From NCBI GenBank assembly GCA_030428125.1, contig JAUIBF010000001.1:362383-426382 (forward strand): 64,000 bases of DNA. The letters are read 5' to 3'. Source of the DNA: a bacterium. GTDB lineage: Bacteria; Patescibacteriota; Saccharimonadia; Saccharimonadales; SZUA-47. The notes beneath the pieces were generated by a model. The model was not told where the DNA came from. It worked only from the letters and a program-made list of their open reading frames with translations, and ran no database searches. Numbering within the stretch: the stretch's first letter is position 1; every line of letters starts with the position of its first letter. The position numbers and the translations under genes are program-made. Of the stretch, positions 35,954-61,853 are shown in pieces.

Positions 35954-36038
35954 GCGCGAGTGGTGGAATTGGTAGACACGCTAGTCTTAGGAACTAGTGC
36001 AGCAATGCGTGAAGGTTCAAGTCCTTTCTCGCGCACCA
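35954..36038 (+). tRNA. tRNA-Leu (anticodon UAG), CCA encoded
   Basis: Folded by hand: acceptor GCGCGAG/CTCGCGC, D-arm GTGGAATTGGTAGACAC, anticodon stem CTAGT/ACTAG with loop CTTAGGA, a long variable arm, T-arm GAAGG-TTCAAGT-CCTTT, and discriminator A plus CCA. Confidence 0.9.
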
Positions 36039-37003: not shown

Positions 37004-37104
37004 CGCAGAATTATTTTTAAGTGTGATTTTTATGATACTTTCAAACTCGTAGCTTCTAAAGTAAACTAACATTACTAGTTAAGCTAGATGCGGGAAGATT
37101 TGTC

Positions 37105-37692: not shown

Positions 37693-37740
37693 GTGACATA
37701 AGCAATATCTAATTCACGGTTGTTTTGATACATTTATCTC

Positions 37741-38670
37741 ATGGTAGAAACTTACAGACCGAATTTTGTTGTGGCAGCTGAATATTATGCTACAAGAGGT
37801 TCTGAGACTTCAGAGCTAGCGACACTACTAAAGCCTGAAGGTGATTTTCCTGACTTCGCTCAAAATGTATCTGGTATATGGGTTCCTCACGAGATCTCTG
37901 AAGACCATGAAAGATTCGACAAGCTAAACTTACTAGCTAATACCGTTTCACAACAGCGTGTCGACGAAGGTGAAGAACCGCTTCGGCTCTATTGTGATTT
38001 GTCTTGTTCTGGGTCGGTAAAGGATGTCATTAAATATCTGGGGAGGTTTTATAGAAGAACTTTTGCGCCTCATGTAACTGTTACGTTTGCACCAAAAGTT
38101 GAACCAGAATTAATCAAAGCCGTACTTGAGGATCATGCAGTACTGGAGGGTAAATGGGTTCATGACTTCATGCTCTCAGGTGTATTGCCAGAGGACAATC
38201 CTAATCCGGGAGAGTTCAACATGAAAAGGAGTCCAAAGAAAGAGATAAACAGAACTCGCAAAAGATCTAAGTTAGTTGCTCAGTTTGAAGAAAAAGGATA
38301 TCCAGGCTTAGTAGGGTTGTGCGGTCTAGGTTCCTTGGCATTACACACACTTCACGATCAACCCTATTTAGCAATGGGTGTAGATGACGGCGAAGGCTAC
38401 GTAGTTAAGTTAGGTGAAGACGATTTAGTCTTTAAGCGAGGTAGTACTTTAGCTGAGACTTTGCCACAAGCTACAATGACAGATTTGTTATTTGGTAGGG
38501 CTTTATTCAAAGACGCTACAGGCGAGCATACATCATTCGATATGGTTGATAAATCCGGTCGTCCGGAAGACCTGAAAAGGATATACGAAACAGTTGTTGC
38601 TAATATTAAAGACCGTAGGCAAAGAGTTGCTGAATACATAGCAAGTCGAGAGGAATTTGTAATTGCCTAA
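37741..38670 (+). CDS. hypothetical protein (orphan island gene 3)
   Basis: 309 aa. TGaTACATT-N6-ATG. Contains a central basic patch, KRSPKKEINRTRKRSK. No family recognised. Confidence 0.55.
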   Translation: MVETYRPNFVVAAEYYATRGSETSELATLLKPEGDFPDFAQNVSGIWVPHEISEDHERFDKLNLLANTVSQQRVDEGEEPLRLYCDLSCSGSVKDVIKYLGRFYRRTFAPHVTVTFAPKVEPELIKAVLEDHAVLEGKWVHDFMLSGVLPEDNPNPGEFNMKRSPKKEINRTRKRSKLVAQFEEKGYPGLVGLCGLGSLALHTLHDQPYLAMGVDDGEGYVVKLGEDDLVFKRGSTLAETLPQATMTDLLFGRALFKDATGEHTSFDMVDKSGRPEDLKRIYETVVANIKDRRQRVAEYIASREEFVIA

Positions 38671-42153: not shown

Positions 42154-42372
42154 ATGGATAGACTAGAACCTGGTGTTGATTCTTTATTTAGTGCTGCCGA
42201 TTTACGTAACGCAGCAGAAGCCAGCCCTGACCCTGAACAGTGTCGCCGGACAGCAGCCTGGGCTATAAAAGGGGTTGCTGACACTGGAGTCCCAGATGAT
42301 GTGGCTACTGAATATTTCAAAATTGTTGCAAGTAAATTTCAATACTTAGCACTCAAGCTTGACGAGTGCTAA
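42154..42372 (+). CDS. hypothetical 72-aa ORF whose last nine codons are the clpP CIRCE operator
   Basis: GNN-rich codons look coding, but there is no SD or promoter, and the 3' end ([10 protein letters not shown]-stop) coincides exactly with CIRCE at 42346-42372. Confidence 0.35.
42346..42372. promoter_or_regulatory. CIRCE operator (HrcA binding site) upstream of clpP
   Basis: TTAGCACTC-AAGCTTGAC-GAGTGCTAA, a perfect consensus match. Confidence 0.85.
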
Positions 42373-42388
42373 GTATAGAGTGTATATT
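42359..42388 (+). promoter_or_regulatory. clpP promoter (leaderless geometry)
   Basis: TTGACG(42359-42364, inside CIRCE)-N18-TATATT(42383-42388), then 7 nt to the ATG at 42396. Confidence 0.65.
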
Positions 42389-42395
42389 CAATATT

Positions 42396-43001
42396 ATGAA
42401 AGACGAGAATTCTAATCCAACAAGTTCAGTTTTAGTACCAACAGTCATTGAGTCTGACGGTCGAATGGAGAGGGCATATGATATTTATAGTCGCTTGCTT
42501 AAAGAGCGAATTATATTTCTAGGAACAGACGTAAATGCACATACTGCGAATCTAATCGTTGCACAGCTTTTGTTTCTTCAAAATGAAGATCCGAAAAAAG
42601 ACATCATGCTTTATATAAACAGCCCTGGTGGAAGTGTTTATGACGGCATGGCTATATTTGATACTATTCGCCATATAAAAAACGACGTCTCTACAGTCGG
42701 CATTGGTTTGCAAGCTAGTATGGGTGCGTTTCTGCTAAGTTCAGGAACTAAAGGTAAACGTTATGTCTTGCCTCACTCTAAAGTCATGATTCACCAGCCA
42801 TCTAGTGGGACTAGAGGTAAAGTCTCAGACATGGAAATCGATTTGAAACAGTCATTAGAACTACGTAAAGAGTTAAATGAAATTCTGGCTAAAAACACTG
42901 GTCAGAAACTATCTAAAATCGAAAAAGACGTCGACAGAGATTTCTGGATGTCTGCACAAGAAGCAGTTGACTACGGTATCGCCGACAAAGTTCTAGGATA
43001 A
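42396..43001 (+). CDS. clpP: ATP-dependent Clp protease proteolytic subunit
   Basis: Catalytic triad context [15 protein letters not shown] and DRDFWMSA. Start set at the ATG 7 nt after the -10; the track ORF begins at 42366. Confidence 0.93.
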
Positions 43002-43043: not shown

Positions 43044-43601
43044 GTGAGTAAAAATATACAACTAATTCCCTTGTCTGATGTAAAAGAGCGTGATCACCCC
43101 CACTATCCACTAAGATTAGGTGACAGGTTACGAAACGATGATTCGGTATTTTCTAGACGACCTCAGTTCGAAGTAGTAAATTTTACAGGTGAAGGCGTGC
43201 TAAAAAGGTACACCCAGCTAGAAGAAGGAAATAAAGGCGACAGTGGATTTCTAGTTACCGTTGAGAATGAGGATCACACACTTGCACCTATAGGATTAGG
43301 TTCGATTGCTACGAGAGAACTGTTTGTTAAAACTGGACGGATAAGCTATGAATGCATGGGTCAATTTACGCTCGTGAGTGCTGTAGTATTGAATGCTGAC
43401 GCGAACTTTGAACCAGCAATGGGAGCTTTAGTTAAAGAGGCAATAAATTCAGACAGAGAATCCGTTGCTGCAATAGAACCAATTTATACGGATGGTGTAG
43501 TAGTTGACGCCTTAGTAGCTACTGTTGGTGATCTAAAAGAAGTAGGCAAAATTGGTGGTCCTGGTATACCTAAGCGTCCAATGCAACTATTTGTGGCTTG
43601 A
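43044..43601 (+). CDS. hypothetical protein (orphan) between clpP and rpoB
   Basis: 185 aa with a GTG start. No family recognised. Confidence 0.5.
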   Translation: MSKNIQLIPLSDVKERDHPHYPLRLGDRLRNDDSVFSRRPQFEVVNFTGEGVLKRYTQLEEGNKGDSGFLVTVENEDHTLAPIGLGSIATRELFVKTGRISYECMGQFTLVSAVVLNADANFEPAMGALVKEAINSDRESVAAIEPIYTDGVVVDALVATVGDLKEVGKIGGPGIPKRPMQLFVA

Positions 43602-43794: not shown

Positions 43795-46700
43795 GTGGCA
43801 AAAGGCACTAAGAGTGCGCCGCTCCCCGGAGCAGACGCAAGAAAGTTCTTTAAAAAAAAGAAAGAAATTATCAATCTGCCAAATCTCGTAGACCATCAGA
43901 ACAAATCATTTCAGTGGTTTGTCGATGAAGGTCTCGGCGAGATTTTGAGTGAAATCAGTCCTATAGATGATTACACCGGCACTAAATTAAGCATTCGGTT
44001 CAAAGATTATCACTTTGAAGATCCAAAAATGACCGAAGCAGAGGCGCGTGAAAACAACGTAAGCTTCGAAGCTCCGCTAAAAGCTGTTGCAGAGCTAACA
44101 AACAAAGTTACGGGTGAAGTTAAAGACCAAGAAATCTACCTTGGTGATTACCCATGGATGACATCACGTGGAACCTTCGTTATTAACGGAGCTGAGCGTG
44201 TCGTAGTATCACAATTAATTAGAAGTGCTGGTGTATTCTTTACTGCTGAAAATCACAGTGGCGGAAAGAACCTCTATGGTGCAAAAGTAATCCCTGGTCG
44301 TGGTGCATGGCTAGAGTTTGAAACAGCAGCAAACGGTGCGCTATTCGTAAAAATAGACCGTAAGCGTAAGATTGCTGTTACGACATTGCTAAGAGCACTT
44401 GGTATGAGTGAAACTAAAATGCGTGAAGCATTTGCTGGAATCGATGACCCTAAGAATTCACACATTACTGCAACCTTAGATAAAGACCCTGCTAAGGGTG
44501 TCAATGAATCGCTAATTGAAGTTTACCGACGATTGCGTCCAGGTGACCTTGCGACTGTAGATAACGCTCGTTCATTGATCGAAAACATGTTCTTCAACTA
44601 CAAGAGATTTGATTTCTCTCGAGTTGGACGATACAAAATCAACAAGCGACTTAAGCTTGACGTGCCTAACACTATTGAAAATCGTGTGATGCGCCTAGAA
44701 GATTTAACAGCGATTGTTGCTGAGCTAATCCGATTGAACGTAACTCAAGATACACCAGATGATATCGACAGTCTTTCAAACCGACGTATTAAGTTAGTCG
44801 GTGAACTAGTTCAAAGACAATTCCGAATTGGTCTGCTTCGTATGGAACGAAACGCAAAAGACCGAATGTCTATGTCCGAAATCGAAACTGTGACTCCTTC
44901 ACAACTAATCAATGCTAGGCCAGTTGTTGCTGCAGTTCGCGAATTCTTCGCCAGCTCTCAGTTGTCGCAGTTCATGGATCAGATTAACCCGCTATCAGAG
45001 CTTGCTCACAAGCGACGTCTAAGTTCTATGGGTCCTGGTGGACTTTCTCGTGAACGTGCAGGATTCGAAGTCCGTGACGCTCATGCAACTCACTACGGAC
45101 GTATTTGTCCGGTAGAAACACCGGAAGGTGCAAACATTGGTCTTGTGTTGAACATGGCTATGTATGCACGAATTAATGACTACGGATTCATGGAAACTCC
45201 ATACCGAGTAGTTAAAAAAGGAAAAGTTACAGACGAAATCGTTTACCTAGATGCTGCTGATGAAGCAGAAGCTGTTATTGCGAGTGCAGGTGAAGAACTA
45301 AAAGAAAACGGAAGTTTTGTAAATTCTCGTGTTTCTGCTCGTAACAAATTGGTTTCAACTGAAGTTGATACAAAAGAAGTTACTCACATCGACGCAGCTG
45401 ACCGACAGATTATCGGTTCAAGCGCTGGTTTGATTCCATTCATCGAAAAGAACTACGTTTACCGAAGTTTGATGGGTAGTAACCAGCAACGTCAGGCAGT
45501 TCCACTAATAACTCCAGAAGCGCCAATTGTTGGTACTGGTCTGGAAGGTGAAGTTGCTAAAAACTCTGGACAGGTTGTTATGGCCGAAGAGGCTGGTGAA
45601 GTTTTGGAAGCTAGCGCAAACAAAGTGGTCGTCGCTTACAAAAAGCGAAAAGCTACTTATGAACCAGTTCATTTCCTACGCTCTAACGAAGGCTCATCAA
45701 TTAACCAAAAAGTTATGGTTAACAAAGGTGACAAAGTTAAAGCTGGGGACATCCTTGTAGAAGGTATGTCAGTAGATCACGGAGAATTAGCACTAGGTAA
45801 AAACTTGCTTGTAGCATTCATGCCATGGCAAGGTTATAACTTCGAAGATGCGATTGTTGTGTCCCGAAGACTAGTACAAGACGACACTCTTACATCTGTT
45901 CACATTGTTGATTACATGACAGAGGTACGTGAAACAAAGCTAGGTCCTGAAATCGTAACTCGAGATATCCCTAACGTATCAGAAGAAGCACTACGTCACT
46001 TAGACGAGGATGGAATTGTCCGAATCGGTGCTGAAGTACATCCTGGAGATATCTTGGTTGGTAAAATTACACCAAAGGGTGAGCAAGAACTTTCAAGCGA
46101 AGAGCGTCTATTGCGCGCAATCTTCGGTGAAAAAGCTAAAGAAGTACGTGATACTTCACAGCGAATGAGTAACGGTAAGCACGGAAAAGTTGTGGGAGTA
46201 AAAGTATTCTCACGAGCAAACGGTCACGAGCTAAAAGCTGGTGTAATTATGCAAATCCAAGTGTTCGTTGCTCAGATGCGTAAGATTGCAGTTGGAGACA
46301 AACTTGGTGGTCGTCACGGCAACAAAGGTGTTATCGCTCGAGTTCTACCAGAAGAAGATATGCCATTTACAGAAAATGGAACACCAATTGACGTAGTATT
46401 GAACCCGCTAGGTGTGCCTAGCCGTATGAACATCGGACAGTTGTTCGAAGTCCACTTAGGAATGGCTGCTAGTGCTCTAGGCTTTAATGTAGCTAGTCCA
46501 TCATTTGACGGTGTAGAAACATCAAAAATTCGTGAACTGCTTGCCGAAGCTAAATTACCAGAAGACGGAAAACAACAATTGTTTGACGGACGAACTGGTG
46601 AACCATTTAGTGAGCGAACTACAGTTGGTTCTATGTACATGATTAAGCTAAACCACATGATTGTCGATAAGATTCACGCACGAAGCACTGGACCATACAC

Positions 46701-47229
46701 AATGGTTACCCAGCAACCTCTTGGTGGTAAAGCACAAAACGGTGGTCAGAGATTTGGTGAAATGGAAGTTTGGGCACTTGAAGCTTATGGTGCCGCAAAC
46801 ACATTGCAAGAAATGTTGACATTGAAGTCTGACGACGTTTATGGACGTTCAAAGGCCTACGAATCAATCATTAAAGGCACTGAAATCGTCGGACCGAAAG
46901 TTCCAGAAAGCTTTAACGTTCTTGTGAAAGAACTTCAAGGCCTAGGACTTAAAGTTGACTTAGTTGAAGGTGAAACAGCAGAAATTTTGGATGCTGAAAA
47001 AGTATTGCAGGAAAACGTAAAAGACGAAGGCGACCACATGCCTGAAGTTGAAGTTCCTACTGATGCAATTTCTGACGTAGATGTAACAGAAGACGCTGCT
47101 ACTGAAGGTGAATTTGCAGTTACTGACGCTGACGGAAACGAAGTTGAAGCTGAAAACAATGATGCGGAGGATGCCAATGCTGAGCATGAATACGCCGCAG
47201 ACTCTGAAGATGAGAAGGAGGTAGCGTAA
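43795..47229 (+). CDS. rpoB: DNA-directed RNA polymerase subunit beta, with an acidic C-terminal tail
   Basis: 1144 aa with a GTG start after AGGAG and the GDKLGGRHGNKGV motif. The last roughly 90 aa are Asp/Glu/Ala-rich. Confidence 0.95.
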   Translation: MAKGTKSAPLPGADARKFFKKKKEIINLPNLVDHQNKSFQWFVDEGLGEILSEISPIDDYTGTKLSIRFKDYHFEDPKMTEAEARENNVSFEAPLKAVAELTNKVTGEVKDQEIYLGDYPWMTSRGTFVINGAERVVVSQLIRSAGVFFTAENHSGGKNLYGAKVIPGRGAWLEFETAANGALFVKIDRKRKIAVTTLLRALGMSETKMREAFAGIDDPKNSHITATLDKDPAKGVNESLIEVYRRLRPGDLATVDNARSLIENMFFNYKRFDFSRVGRYKINKRLKLDVPNTIENRVMRLEDLTAIVAELIRLNVTQDTPDDIDSLSNRRIKLVGELVQRQFRIGLLRMERNAKDRMSMSEIETVTPSQLINARPVVAAVREFFASSQLSQFMDQINPLSELAHKRRLSSMGPGGLSRERAGFEVRDAHATHYGRICPVETPEGANIGLVLNMAMYARINDYGFMETPYRVVKKGKVTDEIVYLDAADEAEAVIASAGEELKENGSFVNSRVSARNKLVSTEVDTKEVTHIDAADRQIIGSSAGLIPFIEKNYVYRSLMGSNQQRQAVPLITPEAPIVGTGLEGEVAKNSGQVVMAEEAGEVLEASANKVVVAYKKRKATYEPVHFLRSNEGSSINQKVMVNKGDKVKAGDILVEGMSVDHGELALGKNLLVAFMPWQGYNFEDAIVVSRRLVQDDTLTSVHIVDYMTEVRETKLGPEIVTRDIPNVSEEALRHLDEDGIVRIGAEVHPGDILVGKITPKGEQELSSEERLLRAIFGEKAKEVRDTSQRMSNGKHGKVVGVKVFSRANGHELKAGVIMQIQVFVAQMRKIAVGDKLGGRHGNKGVIARVLPEEDMPFTENGTPIDVVLNPLGVPSRMNIGQLFEVHLGMAASALGFNVASPSFDGVETSKIRELLAEAKLPEDGKQQLFDGRTGEPFSERTTVGSMYMIKLNHMIVDKIHARSTGPYTMVTQQPLGGKAQNGGQRFGEMEVWALEAYGAANTLQEMLTLKSDDVYGRSKAYESIIKGTEIVGPKVPESFNVLVKELQGLGLKVDLVEGETAEILDAEKVLQENVKDEGDHMPEVEVPTDAISDVDVTEDAATEGEFAVTDADGNEVEAENNDAEDANAEHEYAADSEDEKEVA

Positions 47230-51089: not shown

Positions 51090-51118
51090 TTGAAGCTTAA
51101 GCCTAAATCTGTTACAAT
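51090..51118 (+). promoter_or_regulatory. rpsL (str operon) promoter
   Basis: TTGAAG-N17-TACAAT with an extended-10 TGt. The same TGTTACAATAA core occurs in the tuf promoter. Confidence 0.6.
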
Positions 51119-51227: not shown

Positions 51228-51641
51228 ATGCCAACAATCAATCAGTTAGTGCGTAAACCACGCAAGACGCCTAAGGACAAATCTAAGTCTCCTGCGCTTC
51301 ATCGTGTGGTTAACAATCTAAAAACTACAAACTATGAAAAACCAGCGCCACTAAAAAGAGGTGTCTGCGTTAAAGTAACAACTAAAACACCTAAGAAGCC
51401 AAACTCTGCTTTGCGTAAAGTTGCACGTGTTCGTTTGAACAACGGATACGAAGTTTGGGCTTACATCGGTGGTGAAGGTCACAACCTACAAGAGCACGCC
51501 GTTGTTCTGATCCGTGGTGGACGTGTGCCTGACCTTCCTGGTGTTCGATACCACATTGTACGAGGTTCATTGGACTTGCAAGGTGTAGAAAACCGAAAAT
51601 CTGGCCGTTCTAAATACGGTACGAAAAAGGCAGGTAAATAA
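51228..51641 (+). CDS. rpsL: 30S ribosomal protein S12
   Basis: 137 aa with PTINQLVRK and [16 protein letters not shown]. Confidence 0.97.
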
Positions 51642-51643
51642 CC

Positions 51644-52120
51644 ATGCCACGTAAAACTACAAAAGCCTTAGTGCGACCTAAGCTACCTGACCGAAAATAC
51701 AATTCAGAAATGGTACAACGACTAATCAACAGAGTAATGTTGAATGGTAAAAAGCAACTAGCAGAACGAATCGTTTATGACGCAATGGCAGAAGCTGCAC
51801 GTCTAGTTAAGAACGATAACGAGCTAGAAGTTTTTGATAAAGCGATGAAGAACGTAACTCCATACATGGAAACTCGTTCACGTCGTGTAGGTGGTGCTAA
51901 CTACCAAATTCCTTTTGAAGTTAAAGGCCAACGACAGAAACACCTTACAATTATGTGGTTTGTTGCTGCTGCTAGATCTAAAAAAGGTATGCCAATGAGC
52001 AAAAGAATTGCTACAGAGCTAGCTGATGCTTACAACCAGACGGGTACAGCCTTCAAGAAGAAGGAGGACACTCACAAGATGGCAGAGTCTAACCGAGCCT
52101 TTGCTCACTTTGCACGATAA
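51644..52120 (+). CDS. rpsG: 30S ribosomal protein S7
   Basis: 158 aa with an S7 core (GKKQLAERIVYDA, RRVGGANYQIP). Confidence 0.97.
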   Translation: MPRKTTKALVRPKLPDRKYNSEMVQRLINRVMLNGKKQLAERIVYDAMAEAARLVKNDNELEVFDKAMKNVTPYMETRSRRVGGANYQIPFEVKGQRQKHLTIMWFVAAARSKKGMPMSKRIATELADAYNQTGTAFKKKEDTHKMAESNRAFAHFAR

Positions 52121-52434
52121 TGGAACGATTTCAGGATTCAGACACAGGCTCTAGAATCGAGGAAGCTTTAACAGATCAACCTGGAGATGCACCGTCGTCA
52201 AAATATTTCAGAATAGCAAGGATGCTTGCACAAGGTGTAAGCGTTTCAGTAGAAGCTGGATTTAACTTTGGCTCTATCGTATCAACTGACGACGAGTTAG
52301 CTGCAGAGCTAAATGCAACTGAGCATTTAGCATCAAGATTAGCAACAAGGGCATCCTACGCAGATTTCGCAAATGGAAACGATGATCAACTAAAAAACTT
52401 AATTGGAGCAATTAGAGGAAACAATGGCAGTTAA
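52120..52434 (+). CDS. hypothetical 104-aa protein inserted between rpsG and fusA
   Basis: The ATG overlaps the rpsG stop (TAATG at 52118-52122) and the 3' end overlaps the fusA start by 11 nt. GNN-rich codons, acidic. No family recognised. Confidence 0.5.
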
Positions 52435-54511
52435 GAAAACACCACTAGGAAAAATTAGAAACATTGGTATTATCGCGCACATCGATGCAGGTAAGACTAC
52501 AACAACAGAAGGTATCTTGTACCGAACTGGACTCAGCCACAAAATTGGTGCAGTTCATGATGGTGAAACAACTACCGACTGGATGGAACAAGAACGAGAA
52601 CGCGGTATCACAATCGTATCCGCGGCCGTTACTTGTTATTGGAAAGATCACCAAATCAACATCATTGATACACCGGGACACATCGACTTTACAGTAGAGG
52701 TAGAACGTTCACTTCGTGTGCTTGATGGTGCTGTCGTAGTATTCGACGGTAAAATGGGTGTTGAATCACAGTCTGAAACAGTGTGGCGACAAGCTGATAA
52801 GTACGGTGTACCTCGTATCTGTTTCATTAACAAAATCAACCAAACTGGTGGTGATTTCTACAAATCACTTGAGAGCATCCACAACCGACTTTCAAAAGCT
52901 GCTTTTCCTATTCACTTGCCAATTGGCTTTGAACAAAGCATCAACGGTGTAGTCGACCTTGTTGACATGAAAGCCTACAACTACAAAGAATTTGCCGACA
53001 AAGAGCTAGTTGAAAGTGAAATTCCTGAAGATATGAAGGAAAAAGTAGCACGGTACAGAAGCTTGCTAATCGAAAACGCTGTAGCAGAAGACGAAGAATA
53101 CCTAGAAAAATACCTTGAAAAAGGTGAAGAAGGATTAACAGAAGACGAAATCCGACACGCTATCCGTTCAGCAGTTCTTGGTGGTAAATTCTACGCTGTA
53201 ACTGGTGGTGATGGCCGTGGTGTTATCGTTGAAAAAGTTCTAGACCTAATTAACGACTTAATGCCAAGTCCTGAAGACAGGGGTTCAACTTGGGGTAAGG
53301 ACGCAAAATCTGGCGACGAAATCGAACGAAAACCTTCCGATTCAGAACCTATGAGTGGACTAGCTTTCAAGATTACAACCGACCCATTTGTTGGTAAGCT
53401 TGCTTATTTCCGTGTTTATTCAGGAACACTTAAAGCTGGTTCATATGTAATGAACAGCTCAACCGGTAATAAAGAGCGTATCGGACGTATCGTTCGTATG
53501 CAGGCTGATAAGCGAGAAGAAATTGATGAAGTACAAGCTGGTGATATTGCTGCAATCGTCGGACTGAAAGCAACTACAACCGGAAATACACTTTGTGATT
53601 TAGATAAGCAGATTATATTAGAAAGCATCGACTTCCCAGAACCTCCAGTATCGATTGCTATCGAACCAAATACAAAGAGCGACCAAGAAAAAATGTCTAT
53701 TGCCTTGCAACGTCTTGCTGAAGAAGATCCAACTTTCCGAGTAAAGGTTGATGATGAAACAGGTCAAACTGTTATTTCAGGAATGGGTGAGCTTCACTTG
53801 GAAATCCTAGTAGACAGAATGAAGCGAGAATTTAAGGTTGAAGCTAACATCGGAGCACCTCAGGTTGCATACCGAGAAACTATCCGAAAAGACGGAGTAG
53901 AAATCCAAGGAAAATTCATCAAGCAGTCTGGTGGTCGTGGTCAATACGGTGATGTATGGCTAAGACTATCACAAAATACTGCCGGTGAAGGATTCGAATT
54001 CATTAACTCTATCAAGGGCGGTGTAGTTCCTCAGGAATACATCAAGCCTGTTGAGCAAGGAATCATCGAAGCAATGAACAACGGTGTTCTTGCTGGATAT
54101 CCGGTAGTAGACATCAAAGCAGAACTTTACGATGGTTCATACCACGATGTTGACTCAAGCGAAGCAGCCTTTAAGGTAGCTGGATCAATGGCGCTTAAAG
54201 ACGGCGTTAAAGCTGCAAAGCCTGTAATCCTAGAGCCTGTTATGAAAGTTGTTGTTGTAACTCCGGAAGAATTCATGGGTGACTGTATTGGGGATCTTAA
54301 CGCTAAGCGTGGACGAGTAGAATCTATGGAAGATTTGTCTGCTGGTGTTAAAGAAATTACTGCCTTCGTACCTCTAGGTGAAATGTTTGGATACACAACT
54401 AACCTTCGTTCAATGACTCAAGGTCGAGCAAGCTCAAGCATGGAGCTCGATCATTACGCTGATGTTCCTAACAACGTTGCAGAAGCAATCATTGCCAACA
54501 ACTCAAAGTAA
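52424..54511 (+). CDS. fusA: elongation factor G
   Basis: Start set at [29 protein letters not shown], preceded by AGAGGA; the track ORF begins at 52403. Full EF-G domain set. Confidence 0.95.
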
Positions 54512-54523
54512 AGGGTTTATACC

Positions 54524-55090
54524 ATGCCAAATGTCAGTGAACATACACTAGAGCACTTAGCGCTAGATGTTGAAAACTATTTTGACGCAGTGGCTAGAAA
54601 CCATGGTCATAATGCAGTTTGGTACCTTTCTCCAATCGGGGAGCGTATGATAGACCTGACTCAAGACCCAGATGACAGTAGTCACATGCCTTACGTATAC
54701 AATGATGTTACTGCCCAAATAGGAGCGGAAATTTTTGGAGAGTATAACGGCGTTCACTACACAGTTAATGATGATCTGACGGCTCTAGCAAAGTTGCCCG
54801 TGAGAGTAAGCCTAGGGCTTTTGCCACCCCTCGAAGAATTTCGCCTACCAATTGATGAAGCAGCCGAACAACTGGCAGCAATAATACCCGCAGTAAGGGA
54901 TGGTGCGGCGCTCATAAAGTCAGCGTACAGTGTCGATACTCATATTAAATCTATGGCTACTGCTGTAGAAAGAGTTAGCGTTACAGAAAGTAGACGAAGC
55001 TTAACTAGGATACCGTTCTTTGGTAAGTTAGTTCCCACAGAGAACGTTCCAACCTATGAAGCAAAAGTAGCACAACTACTTGATAGTTAG
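54524..55090 (+). CDS. hypothetical 188-aa protein inserted between fusA and tuf
   Basis: The ATG lies 12 nt after the fusA stop. The -35 of the tuf promoter lies in its last codons. No family recognised. Confidence 0.5.
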   Translation: MPNVSEHTLEHLALDVENYFDAVARNHGHNAVWYLSPIGERMIDLTQDPDDSSHMPYVYNDVTAQIGAEIFGEYNGVHYTVNDDLTALAKLPVRVSLGLLPPLEEFRLPIDEAAEQLAAIIPAVRDGAALIKSAYSVDTHIKSMATAVERVSVTESRRSLTRIPFFGKLVPTENVPTYEAKVAQLLDS

Positions 55091-55109
55091 TAGCAGAATT
55101 TGTTACAAT
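55080..55109 (+). promoter_or_regulatory. tuf promoter
   Basis: TTGATA-N18-TACAAT with an extended-10 TGt. Confidence 0.6.
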
Positions 55110-55216
55110 AACACTTGTAACTCGTGAGAGGGCTTTTGTTGATGCGCTCAACAAATATGGATCACGAAACTACGTAAAATAATTCATAAAACCCTTTAAA
55201 ATCTACAGGAGATAAA

Positions 55217-56401
<1,185 letters not shown>

Positions 56402-56423
56402 CCTAAAAACTAATACCAAACAG

Positions 56424-56457
56424 AAGGGCTCTTGGTATTACACTGAGAGCTCTTTTT
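56424..56457 (+). terminator. intrinsic terminator after tuf
   Basis: Stem AAGGGCTCT/AGAGCTCTT (one mismatch), 13-nt loop, T5. Confidence 0.6.
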
Positions 56458-56472
56458 AATGCGAAAGAAAAT

Positions 56473-56868
56473 ATGACAGACACTATAAACAACGGACTTA
56501 GTCCAGATTCTTATGAACACGTTAGCCCTATTATCGGAGCTATTCAAGATACTAGTGATAGATTAAAAAGCTTTTGGTGGAACGTTGGTTCAGGAAACAG
56601 GCCTAAGCCACGACTAGAACGTAGATTAGCCCCTCTAAGGGAAGGTATAGCAATGATGATTCTTGATCATCGAATGCCGGACGAGGTTTTTACGGAGTTA
56701 TCTAGACTTAATGGTGCATATAACACCGAACTTGATGCTTTCTCGGCCCATAGTTACGACTACTATGAACTGGGCGTAAGAACGTCTGCAAACCAGCTAC
56801 ATATGGTAATTGGCGCAGAAGCTACTAAGCCATTTGTTCTGGTTGGCGAACCAGTAATTGTTTCTTGA
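56473..56868 (+). CDS. hypothetical 131-aa protein (tuf-rpsJ insert, gene 1)
   Basis: No family recognised. Its own terminator follows. Confidence 0.5.
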   Translation: MTDTINNGLSPDSYEHVSPIIGAIQDTSDRLKSFWWNVGSGNRPKPRLERRLAPLREGIAMMILDHRMPDEVFTELSRLNGAYNTELDAFSAHSYDYYELGVRTSANQLHMVIGAEATKPFVLVGEPVIVS

Positions 56869-56903
56869 TTATTTAATCTAGGGTATGGCTAGACAATATT
56901 GAG

Positions 56904-56932
56904 ACTCGGGATGAAATATTCCCGAGTTTTTT
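56904..56932 (+). terminator. intrinsic terminator
   Basis: Perfect 8-bp stem ACTCGGGA/TCCCGAGT, 8-nt loop, T6. Confidence 0.8.
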
Positions 56933-56947
56933 GTTACACTTTACAAG

Positions 56948-57349
56948 ATGAGTTTTTCATACACAAAGACAGAAACAGCGATTTTTCAAGCCGCTGAACG
57001 TGCTGAATCTAAGGTTCGTGTTTTGGATTCTGGCATCGTTAGCTGGCCTGCAGAAGATTGGAGTGTAGTACTGTATCCTATAAAATATTTCGAAGGTTTT
57101 GAGGATTATGGTGCTCTAACAGCTGCAAAGGCAGATGAAGGTGTCGTAGAGTCAAAAGTGTTTGTATTTACAGCACTAAAGCTAGGCATGTGTGTATCAT
57201 TAGTTAGAGACGAAACTATACCAATGACTTCAGACTCAAATATCTTAGCCGATGCGATAACTAGCACTATGGATTTGCCGGGCTACTCTGCCCCCAACCA
57301 GGGAGACATGTCAGACTTTGAAACTTTTCTAGGTTACGCACTAATTTAA
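56948..57349 (+). CDS. hypothetical 133-aa protein (tuf-rpsJ insert, gene 2)
   Basis: TGtTACACT(56932-56940)-N7-ATG, a leaderless-type start. Acidic. No family recognised. Confidence 0.5.
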   Translation: MSFSYTKTETAIFQAAERAESKVRVLDSGIVSWPAEDWSVVLYPIKYFEGFEDYGALTAAKADEGVVESKVFVFTALKLGMCVSLVRDETIPMTSDSNILADAITSTMDLPGYSAPNQGDMSDFETFLGYALI

Positions 57350-57486
57350 TTTTTCATAAAACTTGGCTGATCTAGCGAACTTGAAATATACATCACTAAT
57401 CACATGCTAAACAAATAATCAAATATGTGATATTGTATTCTTTATGACAATGGAAAAAATACAGAAGGTTAGTTGACACGAATAGC

Positions 57487-58950
57487 GTGTTTACACAGGA
57501 GGTAGGCGTACTATTACCTTCAGTTATCGAATATGCACAGTTGAGTATTGAAGCCACAGATGCAAACGGTTTTTTCGTACATTCGGGCATGGGTCCAAAA
57601 ACAAGTAAAAGAGTAGCTGACAACTCTCAGAGAAGAAAACTTACTGATGATGAAGTAGATTTAATGAGGTTTTCGAATGCTTTATTGTTTCAAGTAAGAG
57701 ATCCAGAAGAGTTTGTAGAAATTAACCTAAGGGCTGTAGGCACTGCGGTTGATAACTTTTCTGAAGACAATGGCTTATCTAGACTTGGTAGACAAGAAAC
57801 TCTAGACACAGTTGAGGCAACTCTTAGAAATGGCTTAATTTATATGCTGCCCAAGGTGGTGCTGGTGAGCGATGTACACGAACAGTACAAAGCACTAGAT
57901 AATGATGAAAAAACTCATCTAAAAGGTGTGTTTGCTCATCCTGTAGCACAGGTAGGCTCAAGCGACTCACATACTTATGGTTCGCTTGCAACAACGCTGG
58001 CGTTTCCCGGACAAGACGGTGAGGCACCTATAGATCCAATCATTGCTTCTGTTAAAGAAGGTGAATTAGACGCAGAGCTTTATCGATATCTCATTCGCTA
58101 TCCAGAACTATTTCAGAAGTATCCTTCACTTGTGGCCATTACTAAATTTGCCGTATCAGTACTAAATGGTGCTCAAGATGAGCTGGAAGCTAGTGTTGGT
58201 AGTCAAGCAGAACGACTAGTATCCGATAAGCACGGTGATTTAACAGGACCAGCACATGAAGAATTAATTAAGCTACGAAATACTACACTCAACATGATTA
58301 CTAGCAGTATTCGCCTCGCTCGTTTAACTGGAGCAGGGTTACATTACACACCAGAACAACTAGAAGAATTACTTGCCTTAAGCCATGAATCTGAGATGTA
58401 CAGAATCAATTCAAGACTTGGTTTGGTTAGAGACACTAGGAGTGCGGCAGTTAAAAAGAAAAGAATACAGGCAACAAAAACAGCAGTAGCGAAGGGCCTG
58501 GATCCCGACATGACTTCTGAAGTAAAAAAAGTTATATCAAGACAAGCTGGAGCGCTAACAAATACAGTTAGCAGAGAATCGGAATATGGAGATGAGCCGG
58601 TAAGATCATTTATAGCAGATTTTGTTGGTAAGCGACCTAATGCAGAAGAAATAATCAAACAACTTGTAAAGTCAATAAAACACGTTAGTGCAGCAGACTT
58701 ATCTGGCGGTAATGTTAGAGGCTTAAGGACAATCAAAAATTGTGATAGAAAAATTGAAATTGACGGAGTAACACATACTGTCTTTGAGCTAAAGCCCAGG
58801 GACATATCAGATTTAGGTGCCGGTAAATCAAGAAATATAAATGATATCCGTATGATCGTCGCTATTAACGGAGATGAATCTTTGGTAATTTTAGGCATCG
58901 TAAAGAGAGATAAACTTTACGACAAAACCAAAACGCTTGGGTTGAGATAA
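57487..58950 (+). CDS. hypothetical 487-aa protein with a possible RelE/ParE-superfamily C-terminal domain (tuf-rpsJ insert, gene 3)
   Basis: GTG start is uncertain. The C-terminus, VFELKPRD...DIRMIVAINGDESLVILGIVKRDKLYDKT, resembles the yElR...yRiiY.i.gd.ivil.i..R pattern of RelE/ParE/HigB-like toxins. The N-terminal roughly 390 aa are unassigned. Confidence 0.55.
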   Translation: MFTQEVGVLLPSVIEYAQLSIEATDANGFFVHSGMGPKTSKRVADNSQRRKLTDDEVDLMRFSNALLFQVRDPEEFVEINLRAVGTAVDNFSEDNGLSRLGRQETLDTVEATLRNGLIYMLPKVVLVSDVHEQYKALDNDEKTHLKGVFAHPVAQVGSSDSHTYGSLATTLAFPGQDGEAPIDPIIASVKEGELDAELYRYLIRYPELFQKYPSLVAITKFAVSVLNGAQDELEASVGSQAERLVSDKHGDLTGPAHEELIKLRNTTLNMITSSIRLARLTGAGLHYTPEQLEELLALSHESEMYRINSRLGLVRDTRSAAVKKKRIQATKTAVAKGLDPDMTSEVKKVISRQAGALTNTVSRESEYGDEPVRSFIADFVGKRPNAEEIIKQLVKSIKHVSAADLSGGNVRGLRTIKNCDRKIEIDGVTHTVFELKPRDISDLGAGKSRNINDIRMIVAINGDESLVILGIVKRDKLYDKTKTLGLR

Positions 58951-59166
58951 ATTAAAACTATTGCTTAAAGCGCTAGAAAGAGATTATCCGGGTTCAAGCG
59001 CAGCTTTTACTTGTGAACTTCCACCTAATGCTTTACGAAAGACCATCAGTATTGTAGAATAATAGTACAAATTAATTGTGCGTGACTAAAAGTCATCCCT
59101 GGAAACACCACTAAATGCCCAAGGAAGATGTTACACCACATAAATATCAAATAGGAGATATTTATT

Positions 59167-59550
59167 ATGGCTGAAGCCAAAAAACCAGCTGCTAAAAAAG
59201 CGGCAACAAAGAAAACAGCAGCGCCTGCTGCACCAGCAAAGCCTGGAATGCAACGAATTCGTATTCGTCTGAAAGCCTATGATCATAAAGTAATCGACCA
59301 GTCTGCAAAACAGATTGTTGATACAGCACTGCGTAACGGTGCTAAGATTGCTGGCCCAATTCCACTACCTACACGTAAGAGTACTTTTACTGTCGTTAAG
59401 AGCCCTCACGTTTACAAAAAAGGTCGTGAACAGTTCGAAATGCGTGTCCATAAGCGACTTATCGACGTTCTAGAACCAACTCCAAAGACTATCGATTCAT
59501 TAATGAATTTATCTTTGCCAGCCGGTTGTGACGCTGAAATAAAAATGTAA
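59167..59550 (+). CDS. rpsJ: 30S ribosomal protein S10 with a Lys/Ala/Pro-rich N-terminal extension
   Basis: AGGAG SD before 59167. The S10 core begins at [19 protein letters not shown] (an internal ATG at 59248 would give a conventional length). Confidence 0.93.
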
Positions 59551-59567
59551 CCATATTAAATTACCTT

Positions 59568-60266
59568 ATGTCCAAGCCTAGAACTGAAACCGGCAGAGTC
59601 CTTAGGACTGCGGGAAATATAGTAAATTCATTTTCAGCCTACAGTAGAACAGAAATTCATGAACATGAAGAAAGTGCTTTAACGAAGCTTGATGCCGAGT
59701 CTGGGAGGTTCATAAGGGAAGTCTTAGAAATGTCAGGTAGATTCGGTAATCCAATGGATGCGGACATTTGCCCTACGGATAGGGTTCGTTCACATATCGA
59801 TCCACACTTAGAATTCATGAGACCATCTTTAGCTAAAGTATACAAAAAGCTTACGGAAACTATGTACGAGCTGAAGCAGCGTACAATTCCTCGTTTAACT
59901 CCGGGAATACTCAATTTGGTAAGTGAAGTTAATAAGGCAGGTGAGGTTACGCGCGAAGAGCTAGAATCAATGGCGAGAGAGTATTTCGATGATGAAGGTA
60001 TCGAAAGGCATTTATTCTTTATGGGATACACTGTCGGGGGAAAGACTTACGAACACGCCGAAACAGTACAAAAGCCCGAAACCTTTAGTGAGGCACTAGC
60101 GCTAGGCTTAGATAGGATTTGGACTCCTATTTTTCTCGAACGGGTCCTTCAGACTAGTAACTACATTGTTTCATCGCTGGGCGCGTGTTCACTGAAAGTG
60201 ACAATGGATTGTTTTGAAGCTAGTCCTCAAGAGCCAATAGCTGGCAGTATGCTACAATACCGCTAA
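59568..60266 (+). CDS. hypothetical 232-aa protein (rpsJ-rplC insert, gene 1)
   Basis: The ATG lies 17 nt after the rpsJ stop. No family recognised. Confidence 0.5.
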   Translation: MSKPRTETGRVLRTAGNIVNSFSAYSRTEIHEHEESALTKLDAESGRFIREVLEMSGRFGNPMDADICPTDRVRSHIDPHLEFMRPSLAKVYKKLTETMYELKQRTIPRLTPGILNLVSEVNKAGEVTREELESMAREYFDDEGIERHLFFMGYTVGGKTYEHAETVQKPETFSEALALGLDRIWTPIFLERVLQTSNYIVSSLGACSLKVTMDCFEASPQEPIAGSMLQYR

Positions 60267-60544
60267 TGGCTAAGAAAAAACAGACACGAAAAAACAAAGC
60301 ACTTATTGAGCCGGATTCGTTATTTTTCCTAAAATTAGTAGTTCTACTAATCATCGGTTCACAATGGATATTTATAAATAGCGGCGACAGTTGGCAGATT
60401 CCTATCCCAATTGGTTTTATATTGGGATTGGTTTTAGTTACTCACGAGCACTTCCAGATAGACAGAAAGATTGAGTACGCTCTGCTGCTTATAGCGTCGT
60501 TCATAGCCTTTTGGCTACCAGTCGGTCTAGTTATACAGCTATAG
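60266..60544 (+). CDS. small membrane protein (rpsJ-rplC insert, gene 2)
   Basis: 92 aa. TAATG overlap with the upstream ORF. Basic N-terminus then about three hydrophobic segments. Confidence 0.55.
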   Translation: MAKKKQTRKNKALIEPDSLFFLKLVVLLIIGSQWIFINSGDSWQIPIPIGFILGLVLVTHEHFQIDRKIEYALLLIASFIAFWLPVGLVIQL

Positions 60545-60580
60545 CTTGCAAAATAATGTGCTAAGTGTAATTGTGTACCT

Positions 60581-60955
60581 ATGAGTAGACTTACTAGAGT
60601 GGTTGCAACATCTTTGCTTTTAGCACCTTCGGCGTGTGGTCAAGATAGTTCTCTCGAGATTGAAGCACGGGATCCTTTCGCGCTAAATACGGCTATGGTT
60701 AAAGAAATAGAAGACAGAGACTATGACTGGAGCTCTGACTATATAGAAGGCTTCGCTGTTGGGGCTGCCTCAAGGTGTATAGATCTCGCCAGAGAGCGAC
60801 ACTACGCCATCGGAGATCAATACTTAGAAGAGGATATATCGGTTGAAGACAGAGAAGATTATAGTAGTGGTATAGAAAACTCGGCTGCAGTAGGAGAGTC
60901 ATTGATTGTGCATTTGTGTTCGGAGGCATTGGAAAGAATCAAACACACAGTGTAG
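60581..60955 (+). CDS. putative secreted protein/lipoprotein (rpsJ-rplC insert, gene 3)
   Basis: 124 aa. Layout TTGCAA-N16-TAATTG-N7-ATG. Signal-peptide-like MSRLTRVVATSLLLAPSAC, with Cys at a weak lipobox. Confidence 0.5.
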   Translation: MSRLTRVVATSLLLAPSACGQDSSLEIEARDPFALNTAMVKEIEDRDYDWSSDYIEGFAVGAASRCIDLARERHYAIGDQYLEEDISVEDREDYSSGIENSAAVGESLIVHLCSEALERIKHTV

Positions 60956-61037
60956 TAGAATAGTCAACCACAGTAGTGAGCACTACGTGCTACTACATGG
61001 CAGGCATATTGACACTAAGTGTAGTAATATAGTCAAC
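60949..61037 (+). repeat. 20-nt direct repeat pair flanking a hairpin, upstream of the rplC promoter
   Basis: AGTGTAGTAGAATAGTCAAC (60949-60968) and AGTGTAGTAATATAGTCAAC (61018-61037) match at 18/20. A 10-bp hairpin lies at 60973-60996. The inverted repeat TAGTCAA-CGTA-TTGACTA lies at 61030-61047. Confidence 0.6.
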
Positions 61038-61040
61038 GTA

Positions 61041-61070
61041 TTGACTAAAGTTAATACTTTGTGCTAAGAT
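61041..61070 (+). promoter_or_regulatory. promoter for rplC-rplD-rplW-rplB-rpsS
   Basis: TTGACT-N18-TAAGAT with an extended-10 TGc. Confidence 0.55.
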
Positions 61071-61232
61071 GTAAGTCAATCGCAAAACTTGGTGAATCAG
61101 AAAGTCTGATAAAAAAGAAACTCCTGACACCAAGAATTTTTATGTCTAAGAGACATGCAAAAATGCCCGCGGTGCCGGTATCACTAACAACTAAATATGA
61201 AAGGTACAGGAGTAAAACTCTGTAACCACACT

Positions 61233-61853
61233 ATGAAAGCGCTCATAACGAGAAAACTTGGCATGACTAGTACCATCGAAGAAGACGGTACAGTTACTGC
61301 TGTTACATTGCTTTCCGCTAGTCCATGCGTAATTACGCAGATCAAAGATGCTGAAAAAGACGGTTATCAGTCTATTCAGGTTGGCTTTGAAGAAACTAAG
61401 CGGGTAAATAAGGCACAAGAAAACCACTTTAAGAAGTCTAAGGCTATGCCGAAGATTATTCGCGAATTCCGCACAGAAGGCTTAGAGCTTCCAGAAGACC
61501 TCGCCGTTGGATCAAAACTAACAGCAGAGGTCTTTTCAGTTGGAGACGTAGTCGACGTAACCGGAACTAGCAAAGGTAAAGGTTTCACATCTACAATCAA
61601 ACGACACAACTTCCACCGTCAGCGAAAGACTCATGGTGGTAAAGGAAATACACGTCAGCCTGGTTCTATCGGTTCTATGTACCCGCAGAAGATTTTCAAA
61701 GGTAAGAAAATGGCCGGTCAGTCTGGTGCTGAACGAGTAACAGTAAAGAACCTAAAAGTTGCTATCGTAGATACCGATAAAGGTGTTTTGGCTGTAACTG
61801 GTGCAGTTCCTGGACCGCGAAAAAGTATTGTTCTAGTGAAAGGAGCTAAATAA
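61233..61853 (+). CDS. rplC: 50S ribosomal protein L3
   Basis: Start set at MKALITRKLGMTS, a typical L3 N-terminus; the track ORF begins at 61197. Confidence 0.95.
   Translation: MKALITRKLGMTSTIEEDGTVTAVTLLSASPCVITQIKDAEKDGYQSIQVGFEETKRVNKAQENHFKKSKAMPKIIREFRTEGLELPEDLAVGSKLTAEVFSVGDVVDVTGTSKGKGFTSTIKRHNFHRQRKTHGGKGNTRQPGSIGSMYPQKIFKGKKMAGQSGAERVTVKNLKVAIVDTDKGVLAVTGAVPGPRKSIVLVKGAK

Follow-up and report, generated by a model that had tools for sequence, protein, structure and literature searches.

The run of translation genes from rpsL to rpsS is a textbook case of frozen bacterial gene order and a phylogenetic marker block for metagenome-assembled genomes (MAGs). In the window analysed here, a 64-kb stretch of a Saccharibacteria genome (TM7; Patescibacteria/Candidate Phyla Radiation, CPR), this str/S10 order is interrupted at four junctions by open reading frames (ORFs), and the question that the locus raises is what these inserts are. 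We name them by their length in amino acids: i104 lies between rpsG and fusA, i188 between fusA and tuf, i131, i133 and i487 between tuf and rpsJ, and i232, i92 and i124 between rpsJ and rplC (Table 1; all coordinates are window-based). A sequence-only reading of this DNA had given the same gene order, all on the + strand, which matches the ORF table. It had counted nine inserts; the sequence and its own list give eight, and the only further ORF (54 aa, 61061-61225) lies inside the rplC leader and has a negative coding score, as expected of non-coding DNA. That reading left two explanations, namely lineage-specific factors linked to the ribosome or translation, or cargo settled in strongly transcribed loci. 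We conclude that the inserts are probably non-essential, turnover-prone accessory genes, which occupy permissive slots at or near the operon borders of a modular str/S10 region.

One line of evidence comes from the same junctions in other species. S10 from the window had 561 relatives in GTDB contigs taken at one genome per species, and we used the loci of the best 80 (77-98% identity), nearly all of them labelled as Saccharibacteria or Saccharimonadia MAGs. In total 86 loci were fetched for searches and each junction was examined in 50-70 of them, where tblastn matches, together with a simple ORF caller, defined the gap boundaries. In the set of 80 species the median gap was 312 nt for rpsG-fusA, 515 nt for fusA-tuf, 604 nt for tuf-rpsJ and 1392 nt for rpsJ-rplC, with maxima of 2.0-5.4 kb at these four expanded junctions; the medians for rpsL-rpsG, rplC-rplD, rplD-rplW and rplW-rplB were just 5-62 nt. 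The gaps are filled mostly by + strand ORFs that are unrelated to each other (284 of 419 are BLAST singletons), and the only large family among them is that of i92. Some of the occupants are ordinary genes, and include those for NUDIX, CxxCxxCC, chorismate mutase, HAD and 23S-rRNA-IVS proteins, a pyridoxal phosphate enzyme and a DnaJ domain. Within the window, none of the eight slot inserts has a Pfam match, compared with 11 of the 35 other ORFs of at least 100 aa that lack one (Fisher p = 5e-4). The same core genes thus flank differing content in many genomes, which is the pattern of a core-flanked turnover hotspot. The interrupted arrangement is common in the lineage, and a search of the literature found no description of it in Saccharibacteria. 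The sequence-only reading had said that its idea would fail if the arrangement proved common and already annotated in the lineage, and in part this is now the case.

Two observations on particular junctions stand beside these counts. The rpsL-rpsG gap, 2 nt in the window, exceeds 300 nt in 3 of 51 species loci. The 23S-rRNA-IVS proteins, which are four-helix bundles resembling bAvd (PF05635, E = 2e-36), sit in the rpsG-fusA slot of two loci (L020:5013-5378 and L050:5314-5694). This family is otherwise associated with rRNA insertions and diversity-generating retroelements.

Turnover is also visible over short distances. Closer relatives were fetched through homologues of i92, among them L082 (a Logan assembly) and L086 (GCA_041618555.1), whose EF-Tu is 98% and 97% identical to that of the window. 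In L082 the rpsL and rpsG proteins are 98-99% identical to those of the window, and the range for EF-G, EF-Tu, S7 and S12 is 97-99%. This relative keeps i188, i232 (84% identical) and i92; it lacks i131, i133, i487 and i124, and i104 is replaced by an unrelated 112-aa Cys-containing ORF. Blocks common to the two have a DNA identity of ~79-91%, with 91% for the stretches that cover rpsL, rpsG and tuf. The homology ends exactly at the rpsG stop and restarts at the fusA start, ends again at the tuf stop and restarts in the rpsJ leader, and also skips i124. The tuf-rpsJ gap is 178 nt in L082, comprising a terminator and then a promoter and leader, versus 2.77 kb in the window, and the i131-i133-i487 island is private to the window genome, being absent from L082 and the other loci. 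L086, L087, L088, L090 and L007 each have yet other slot contents. We read the inserts as passengers because the genes that occupy these gaps change fast and differ in nearly every relative. In L082 a further 59-aa ORF (L082:3424-3603) sits precisely at the rpsL-rpsG junction, so even that junction is occasionally occupied.

The slots are likely operon borders, because the promoter motifs of rpsL and rplC are conserved and both tuf and rpsJ have promoter-like sites and conserved leaders. In the window, promoter-like sites are predicted upstream of all four genes, three of them (rpsL, tuf and rplC) with a TG-extended -10. A TTGnnn-N13-16-TGnTAnnnT pattern lies no more than 300 nt ahead of rplC in 68 of 72 loci and ahead of rpsL in 45 of 52; before rpsG, fusA, rplD, rplW and rplB it was seen in 0-3 loci. 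The total of promoter-like matches in the region is no higher than in shuffled sequence, so the argument rests on position and conservation. Independent use of such elements has been demonstrated in N. lyticus TM7x, where the tuf promoter and terminator and the rpsJ promoter served as separate expression elements driving reporters (Wang et al. 2023, PMC10633639).

Different species share conserved non-coding DNA immediately ahead of tuf, rpsJ and rplC. Several species have in common a tuf leader motif, TAACTCGYGnGAGGGC ... ATGGATCRCGAA, a looser form of which is found in 24 of 62 loci. In the rpsJ leader an invariant UGACUAAAAGUC pairs with GAUGUUACA, flanked by covarying outer and inner stems; compensatory changes were seen in 8 of 16 predicted pairs (36-locus alignment), of which only those in the flanking stems are informative because the loci were chosen on the invariant motif. 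In its strict form this motif was found in 39 of 75 loci. The rplC leader is ~130-160 nt long, and its helix CUUGGn...nCCAAG, which encloses a conserved CAGGUCU and GUAGAAACC, is followed by a U-run and has compensatory changes in 11 of 14 predicted pairs (38-locus alignment). We regard it as a candidate autoregulatory leader of the L4 or L3 type, placed before rplC rather than rpsJ. Rfam gave no match in the region, these two leaders included, at the gathering threshold or at E<=5.

From these features we infer five predicted groups of units in the window: rpsL-rpsG-i104-fusA-i188; tuf; i131, i133 and i487 separately; rpsJ-i232-i92, perhaps with i124; and rplC onward. As the sequence-only reading had pointed out, a TAATG overlap joins the rpsG stop to the i104 ATG (52118-52122) and another joins i232 to i92 (60264-60268). 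The 3' end of i104 runs 11 nt into the start of fusA, with the i104 stop codon 8 nt inside fusA, so that i104 overlaps both neighbours. Spacing is 12 nt from fusA to i188, which is probably co-transcribed with fusA, and 17 nt from rpsJ to i232. Signals of their own had also been described for some inserts, and we found them: i131 is followed by an intrinsic terminator, and i133 is preceded by TACACT-N7-ATG, from which its mRNA is possibly leaderless. A Shine-Dalgarno sequence is clear before the core genes and is not clear before most inserts.

Data from a cultivated relative bear on dispensability. In Southlakia epibionticum the order is S12, S7, 466 nt without an annotated gene, EF-G, seven genes, EF-Tu, a 613-nt gap, S10, a 106-aa hypothetical protein and L3 (PMC10633639, Table S1). 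The seven genes between EF-G and EF-Tu encode an adenylate cyclase, a three-gene amino-acid ABC transporter and three hypothetical proteins (PMC10633639). In transposon insertion sequencing (Tn-seq) all seven, and the 106-aa hypothetical, were classed as non-essential (NE) at each of the three time points, T0-T2, with many transposon insertions, and the flanking core genes as essential (ES), or as having a growth defect (GD) at the first, T0 (PMC10633639). These data show that the interrupted arrangement exists in an annotated cultivated genome and that genes in its fusA-tuf and rpsJ-rplC slots are dispensable in co-culture; insertions there were tolerated and hence not lethal through polarity. 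The same study showed com-dependent natural transformation (PMC10633639), which makes exchange through conserved flanks plausible.

Taken together, this would make the str/S10 region a chain of separately promoted modules (rpsL-rpsG-fusA, tuf, rpsJ, and rplC onward) whose borders act as permissive slots where accessory genes are gained, lost and replaced quickly. The rpsG-fusA junction, which lies inside the first module, appears to behave like the border slots. In such a scheme i104, i188, i232 and i92 would depend for expression on rpsG, fusA and rpsJ, through transcriptional read-through and coupled translation, while i131 and i133 would use their own start signals and i131 its own terminator. 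Turnover could proceed when DNA taken up by natural transformation recombines homologously with the conserved genes on either side. The products would be cytosolic acidic proteins, one membrane protein and one exported or lipid-anchored protein, and would not be translation machinery. The present residents may be graded from old (i92) through clade-level (i232) and shared with one relative (i188, i124) to private orphans (i104, i131, i133, i487). Of the two explanations left by the sequence-only reading, cargo in strongly transcribed loci is the one supported by the variable slots, the breakpoints with L082, the ordinary enzymes elsewhere and the Tn-seq data.

Several points weigh against treating the inserts as accessory cargo. 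For the eight ORFs the term is partly a default label. Replacement is not cleanly separable from divergence beyond recognition, since dS to the nearest relatives is 0.4-1.4. The composition of the inserts is native, so there is no positive sign of import, and no donor was found. The abutment of an ORF to rpsG in 32 of 40 loci points to selection on something at that place rather than to random cargo. The strong conservation of i92 and its fixed position beside rplC fit a mere passenger poorly, and a link to the ribosomal operon is possible. The Tn-seq data come from a different genus in laboratory co-culture, and the 106-aa protein there (SEML1_0475) would be the i92 homologue on the two grounds of size and position. 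Finally, promoters, terminators and co-transcription in the window genome are predictions.

The rpsG-fusA slot is unusual. Its gap is at least 200 nt in 42 loci, and 40 of these have a + strand ORF there, which starts within 30 nt of the rpsG stop in 32 of the 40 (median +3 nt) and usually ends within ~25 nt of the fusA start. No promoter or terminator was found in the slot, and it looks intra-operonic. Typically a single ORF of 60-140 aa is present, mostly acidic, and almost all of these ORFs are mutually unrelated, with 33 of 45 remaining singletons even at phmmer E<0.05. They are enriched in Cys (2.7% vs 0.4% in core proteins), and CxxC-type motifs occur in 19 of 45. CPxTGxxCP-like motifs are also seen among them; the ORFs of the window (i104), L007 and L087 are without such motifs. 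In the pairs that could be aligned, the proportion of differing nonsynonymous sites (pN) was 0.23 against 0.86 for synonymous sites (pS) in one case and 0.39 against 0.72 in another. These data raise the idea that the junctions, and this one most clearly, are "nursery" slots for a class of hypervariable, operon-embedded genes under purifying selection, which are replaced or evolve beyond similarity between species and of which i104, i188 and i232 would be local members. We hold this idea tentatively and think it rather unlikely. If true, such genes might adjust the output of EF-G or of ribosomes, or act in strain-specific contacts between epibiont and host, and the class would be previously undescribed.

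Accessory genes must first be genes, and a coding score, from a 3-periodic Markov model trained on the long genes of the window, addresses this. In the annotated frame all eight inserts score 0.006-0.126 per codon (i104, +0.10, in that frame only), and the other five frames are clearly negative; held-out window genes score -0.05 to 0.31. GC content is 0.39-0.45 in both the inserts and the core genes, and GC at third codon positions (GC3) is 0.27-0.41 in the inserts and 0.29-0.35 in the core genes, so every insert falls within or close to the core-gene range. The native look ascribed to the inserts by the sequence-only reading is therefore borne out by GC, GC3 and frame-specific coding score. 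Chance can be excluded as the origin of the 232-487-aa ORFs, which are too long for it at 42% GC, and for the shorter ORFs the coding score and the substitution patterns with orthologues argue against it. By these statistics all eight inserts are genuine protein-coding genes with native composition.

Substitution rates were estimated by the Nei-Gojobori method between the window and its nearest relatives, for which dS of 0.4-1.4 is near saturation. Values of dN/dS were 0.14 for i188, 0.09 for i232 and ~0.10 for i124 (pN 0.27 and pS 0.74 against the L086 orthologue), compared with 0.11-0.13 for rplD and 0.03 for tuf; i92 has a dN of 0.08 with saturated silent sites. Because amino-acid-changing substitutions are fewer than silent ones in these comparisons with orthologues, i188, i232, i92 and i124 are, on this evidence, protein-coding genes under purifying selection. 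Neutral or frame-disrupted ORFs, which would have spoken against functional genes, were not what we found: selection was purifying wherever orthologues exist.

The remaining four inserts, i104, i131, i133 and i487, have no such orthologues, and for them we considered an origin as young or proto-genes, arisen de novo or decayed in transcribed spacers and with little or no function. Homologues are indeed lacking. Neither i104, i131 nor i133 found a relative in the 86 loci by tblastn, phmmer or hhalign, nor did i104 in JGI metagenomes or curated hidden Markov model (HMM) libraries, i133 in JGI metagenomes, or i131 in IMG/VR; among 5.8 billion protein clusters the sole match to i487 was i487 itself. 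The composition of the four orphans matches the host, all four lack a clear Shine-Dalgarno sequence, unlike core genes, and the closest relative has only the 178-nt spacer where the window has its island. However, a 487-codon ORF in a 2.5-kb block with an internal terminator would be hard to create from a spacer of that size, the coding scores of the orphans (0.06-0.13) equal those of many bona fide window genes, and in other species the alignable rpsG-fusA ORFs have pN well below pS. We consider such an origin unlikely for these four, and accessory genes remain the preferred account.

The families of the inserts speak to the other explanation offered by the sequence-only reading. All eight proteins are singleton clusters at 90% identity, and Pfam, NCBIfam, PHROGs and PADLOC returned nothing below E = 0.03 for any of them. 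No integrase, transposase, recombinase, RNA-binding or GTPase-related family appeared among their matches in the curated libraries. Comparison of the inserts with all 187 clusters and singletons of slot ORFs by hhalign gave a best probability of 12% and no remote link, and tblastn found no paralogues inside the window. That no family could be recognised therefore holds for curated libraries; i92 and i232 do belong to uncharacterised families, a large one of 642 homologues and a small one. More sensitive profile-profile and structure searches, comprising the i92 family profile, AlphaFold2 (AF2) with Foldseek and the hhalign comparison, were null and revealed no ordinary family.

The 642 homologues of i92 are all ~85-115 aa long (E down to 1e-47) and have no Pfam domain. 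Twenty-one columns of the family are invariant, including WQIPIP, HEHFQIDRKIEY and FWLPxG, and i92 itself carries all these motifs. Among the 80 species loci, 47 have a homologue. It always follows rpsJ, and on those loci that include rplC it precedes that gene; the same position between rpsJ and rplC is occupied in L082 (88% identical), L086 (90% identical) and through L093. The i92 gene is typically the last before rplC with variable ORFs ahead of it, so that the rpsJ-rplC slot is a mosaic. An AF2 model of the family had a predicted local distance difference test (pLDDT) score of 65 and no fold match in Foldseek against the PDB (best E 0.7), and the family profile found nothing significant among PDB sequences. 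Its distribution marks i92 as an old, class-wide Saccharibacteria small membrane protein of an unnamed family.

The i232 family has only three clusters (84%, 34% and 33% identity) among 1.84 billion representatives in a full HMMER scan, and its profile found nothing significant among PDB sequences. The members at 33-34% identity lie directly after rpsJ and are followed by an i92 homologue, in genomes whose EF-Tu is 90% identical. On this distribution i232 is a fast-evolving partner that is confined to a sub-clade and fixed to the position after rpsJ. The i188 orthologue in L082 is 70% identical, and i188 is absent from L086, L087 and L007. The i124 orthologue in L086 is 54% identical and i124 is absent from L082; the L086 protein retains both Cys19 and the hydrophobic stretch at the N-terminus, with P or T rather than L/V/I at lipobox position -3, and i124 is probably a lipoprotein or exported protein. 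A single-sequence AF2 model of i487 had a pLDDT of 34 and was unusable. The C-terminus of i487 resembles RelE/ParE by eye; it had no match in Pfam or PDB sequences and we discarded the assignment.

Could the inserts be lineage-specific factors of the ribosome or of translation, for example proteins that modulate EF-G or EF-Tu, assist assembly or stand in for ribosomal proteins that CPR bacteria have lost, with their place in the operons matching expression? Their arrangement invites the thought, as i104 is coupled to rpsG and overlaps fusA, i188 and i232 closely follow core genes, and an ORF fills the rpsG-fusA slot of most Saccharibacteria. So do the class-wide conservation of i92 beside rplC and the purifying selection on all inserts that have orthologues. 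However, five of the eight are absent or replaced in relatives with 96-98% identical EF-G, EF-Tu, S7 and S12, and the slot ORFs are mutually unrelated across species. Seven of the eight have an isoelectric point (pI) of 4.2-6.1, compared with ~10-11 for ribosomal proteins; the set also includes a membrane protein and a protein with an export signal. No RNA-binding or GTPase-related match was found in Pfam or NCBIfam, and genes of the fusA-tuf and rpsJ-rplC slots are non-essential in S. epibionticum. Because the inserts do not track the near-identical translation proteins, are acidic, membrane or exported proteins, and sit in slots whose genes are dispensable in a relative, we regard this explanation as very unlikely, and the proposal of the sequence-only reading to this effect found no support. 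The inserts look like real genes with no sign of membership in the translation machinery.

A different possibility applies to the tight intra-operon ORFs, above all i104: translation itself may be what matters, coupling fusA to rpsG and preventing premature termination, while the peptide drifts. The close abutment to rpsG in 32 of 40 loci, the usual end near fusA, the many singletons and the overlap of i104 with both neighbours fit this. Still, about one fifth of species have a spacer of <150 nt without an ORF, so no spacer of this kind is needed, and the excess of silent over amino-acid-changing differences in alignable pairs, together with the Cys enrichment and CxxC-type motifs, which point to constrained folds, speaks for a peptide that counts. 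We give this explanation little credence and return to accessory genes as the better account.

Remnants of mobile elements, prophages, defence or toxin-antitoxin systems beside conserved genes are extremely unlikely: the private island does lie exactly between the tuf terminator and the rpsJ promoter, has slightly lower GC in sliding windows (0.37-0.41) and includes the RelE/ParE-like end of i487 that found no match, but per-gene GC and GC3 stay within or close to the core range, no integrase, transposase or recombinase was found, direct and inverted repeats around the island (56350-59250) are at chance level only, no tRNA adjoins it (the sole window tRNA is at 35954), PADLOC gave 0 hits, PHROGs gave no match, and neither phage records nor IMG/VR had one for i131 or i487. 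Mobile-element and defence readings are disfavoured for this lack of a positive signal.

The features discussed are collected in Table 1. Other parts of the window offer observations of their own. S10 carries a Lys/Ala/Pro-rich N-terminal extension of ~25 aa (59167-59250), and the members of its 90%-identity cluster span 108-131 aa. A 136-aa ORF without a Pfam match (2446-2856) is wedged with zero spacer between gatA (1018-2445) and gatB (2857-4341); this is the same pattern of a tight unknown in a junction, and the ORF could be a divergent gatC in an unusual position. Ahead of rpoB (43795-47229) stand clpP (42366-43001) and an ORF of 185 aa that has no Pfam match (43044-43601) in place of rplJ-rplL, so the rpoBC part of the classical cluster is also rearranged. 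Just downstream of tRNA-Leu (35954-36038), three + strand ORFs of 212, 195 and 309 aa without a Pfam match (36365-38670) might be another accessory block.

Table 1. Core genes, inserts and predicted signals between rpsL and rplB in the window, with example slot ORFs from other loci.
Feature	Position	Strand	Description
rpsL promoter-like site	51090-51118	+	TTGAAG-N17-TACAAT with TG extension; predicted
rpsL	51228-51641	+	core gene
rpsG	51644-52120	+	core gene
i104	52120-52434	+	104-aa acidic ORF (pI 4.5), rpsG-fusA slot
fusA (EF-G, 695 aa)	52424-54511	+	core gene
i188	54524-55090	+	188-aa acidic ORF
tuf promoter-like site	55080-55109	+	TTGATA-N18-TACAAT with TG; predicted
tuf leader, ~110 nt	55097-55216	+	conserved with several species by blastn
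tuf (EF-Tu)	55217-56401	+	core gene
Terminator after tuf	56422-56457 (approx.)	+	hairpin and T-run; likely; equivalent in L082
i131	56473-56868	+	131-aa ORF, first of three-gene 2.5-kb island
Terminator after i131	56905-56932	+	CTCGGGA-loop-TCCCGAG then TTTTTT; intrinsic, read from sequence
i133	56948-57349	+	133-aa acidic ORF
i487	57487-58950	+	487-aa ORF, GTG start, orphan
rpsJ promoter-like site	59032-59060	+	TTTACG-N17-TAGAAT; predicted
rpsJ leader	59062-59166	+	conserved, structured, UGACUAAAAGUC ... GAUGUUACA
rpsJ (S10)	59167-59550	+	core gene
i232	59568-60266	+	232-aa ORF
i92	60266-60544	+	92-aa small membrane protein
i124	60581-60955	+	124-aa acidic protein, hydrophobic N-terminus
rplC promoter-like site	61041-61070	+	TTGACT-N18-TAAGAT with TG; predicted
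rplC leader helix	61088-61134, T-run 61137-61141	+	attenuator-like; element region up to 61232
rplC, then rplD, rplW, rplB	rplC 61233-61853, others up to 63732	+	core genes, tightly packed
Example ORFs of the rpsG-fusA slot	L009:5227-5652, L052:5299-5643, L011:3980-4258, L082:4215-4553		

Throughout a class of ultra-small epibiotic bacteria, four junctions between rpsL and rpsS thus rank with the most variable places that were sampled. They offer a concrete system for following the origin, persistence and exchange of orphan genes in tiny genomes, and for Saccharibacteria genetics they are candidates for neutral insertion sites and for contexts of strong native expression. They also draw attention to an uncharacterised but conserved membrane family (i92) and a pair of conserved leader RNAs. 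The sequence-only reading had put the inserts forward as its best candidate for something undescribed. This stands for the lineage-wide pattern, which is under-described; because the arrangement is lineage-wide the novelty of this single window is lower, and undescribed translation factors are unlikely, the eight ORFs reading as cargo from slot variability and Tn-seq.

Interruptions of this gene cluster are known from other bacteria. In Gammaproteobacteria bfd-bfr lies between tufA and rpsJ and tusDCB between rpoBC and str, and in Sporolactobacillaceae ilv-leu lies between str and S10 (PMC8046335); 163 events of insertion, deletion or rearrangement were counted in 204 genomes over ~2 Gy (PMC8046335). 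As in those cases from Gammaproteobacteria and Bacilli, the Saccharibacteria inserts are unrelated genes on the same strand at operon borders, with the core genes undisturbed. Unlike in Saccharibacteria, the insertions in Gammaproteobacteria and Bacilli are rare, consist of recognisable genes and lie mostly between operons. Saccharibacteria are more extreme, in that four junctions are affected in most species, contents vary from one species to another and the occupants are mostly orphans; rpsG-fusA and rpsJ-rplC, inside classical operons, are also affected.

The second comparison is with pangenome hotspots. Oliveira and colleagues reportedly set out in 2017 the hotspot concept of gene turnover flanked by core genes in bacterial pangenomes. 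The Saccharibacteria slots resemble such hotspots in their identical flanking core genes and variable content, and natural transformability makes exchange plausible. Classical hotspots usually carry mobile elements, defence systems or imported DNA, whereas none of these was detected in the slots of the window, and the Saccharibacteria hotspots lie inside the most conserved gene cluster.

Two further systems resemble parts of the layout. In Archaea, S10 follows EF-1alpha in a str-like operon and L3-L4-L23-L2 form a separate operon. Saccharibacteria likewise have rpsJ detached from rplC, with rplC heading its own unit; unlike in Archaea, their gene sequences are bacterial and variable ORFs fill the space between rpsJ and rplC, and no evolutionary link is implied. 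In the S10 leader of E. coli, L4 causes attenuation upstream of rpsJ. The Saccharibacteria rplC leader is similar in being a structured leader with a helix and then a U-run before the L3-L4 operon; it differs in standing before rplC rather than rpsJ and in having no sequence or Rfam similarity to known leaders. Finally, the inserts are like the orphan genes of CPR/Patescibacteria in general in being small and family-less against a high background of unknowns. Unlike those orphans at large, they are concentrated at fixed positions and are partly translationally coupled to essential genes.

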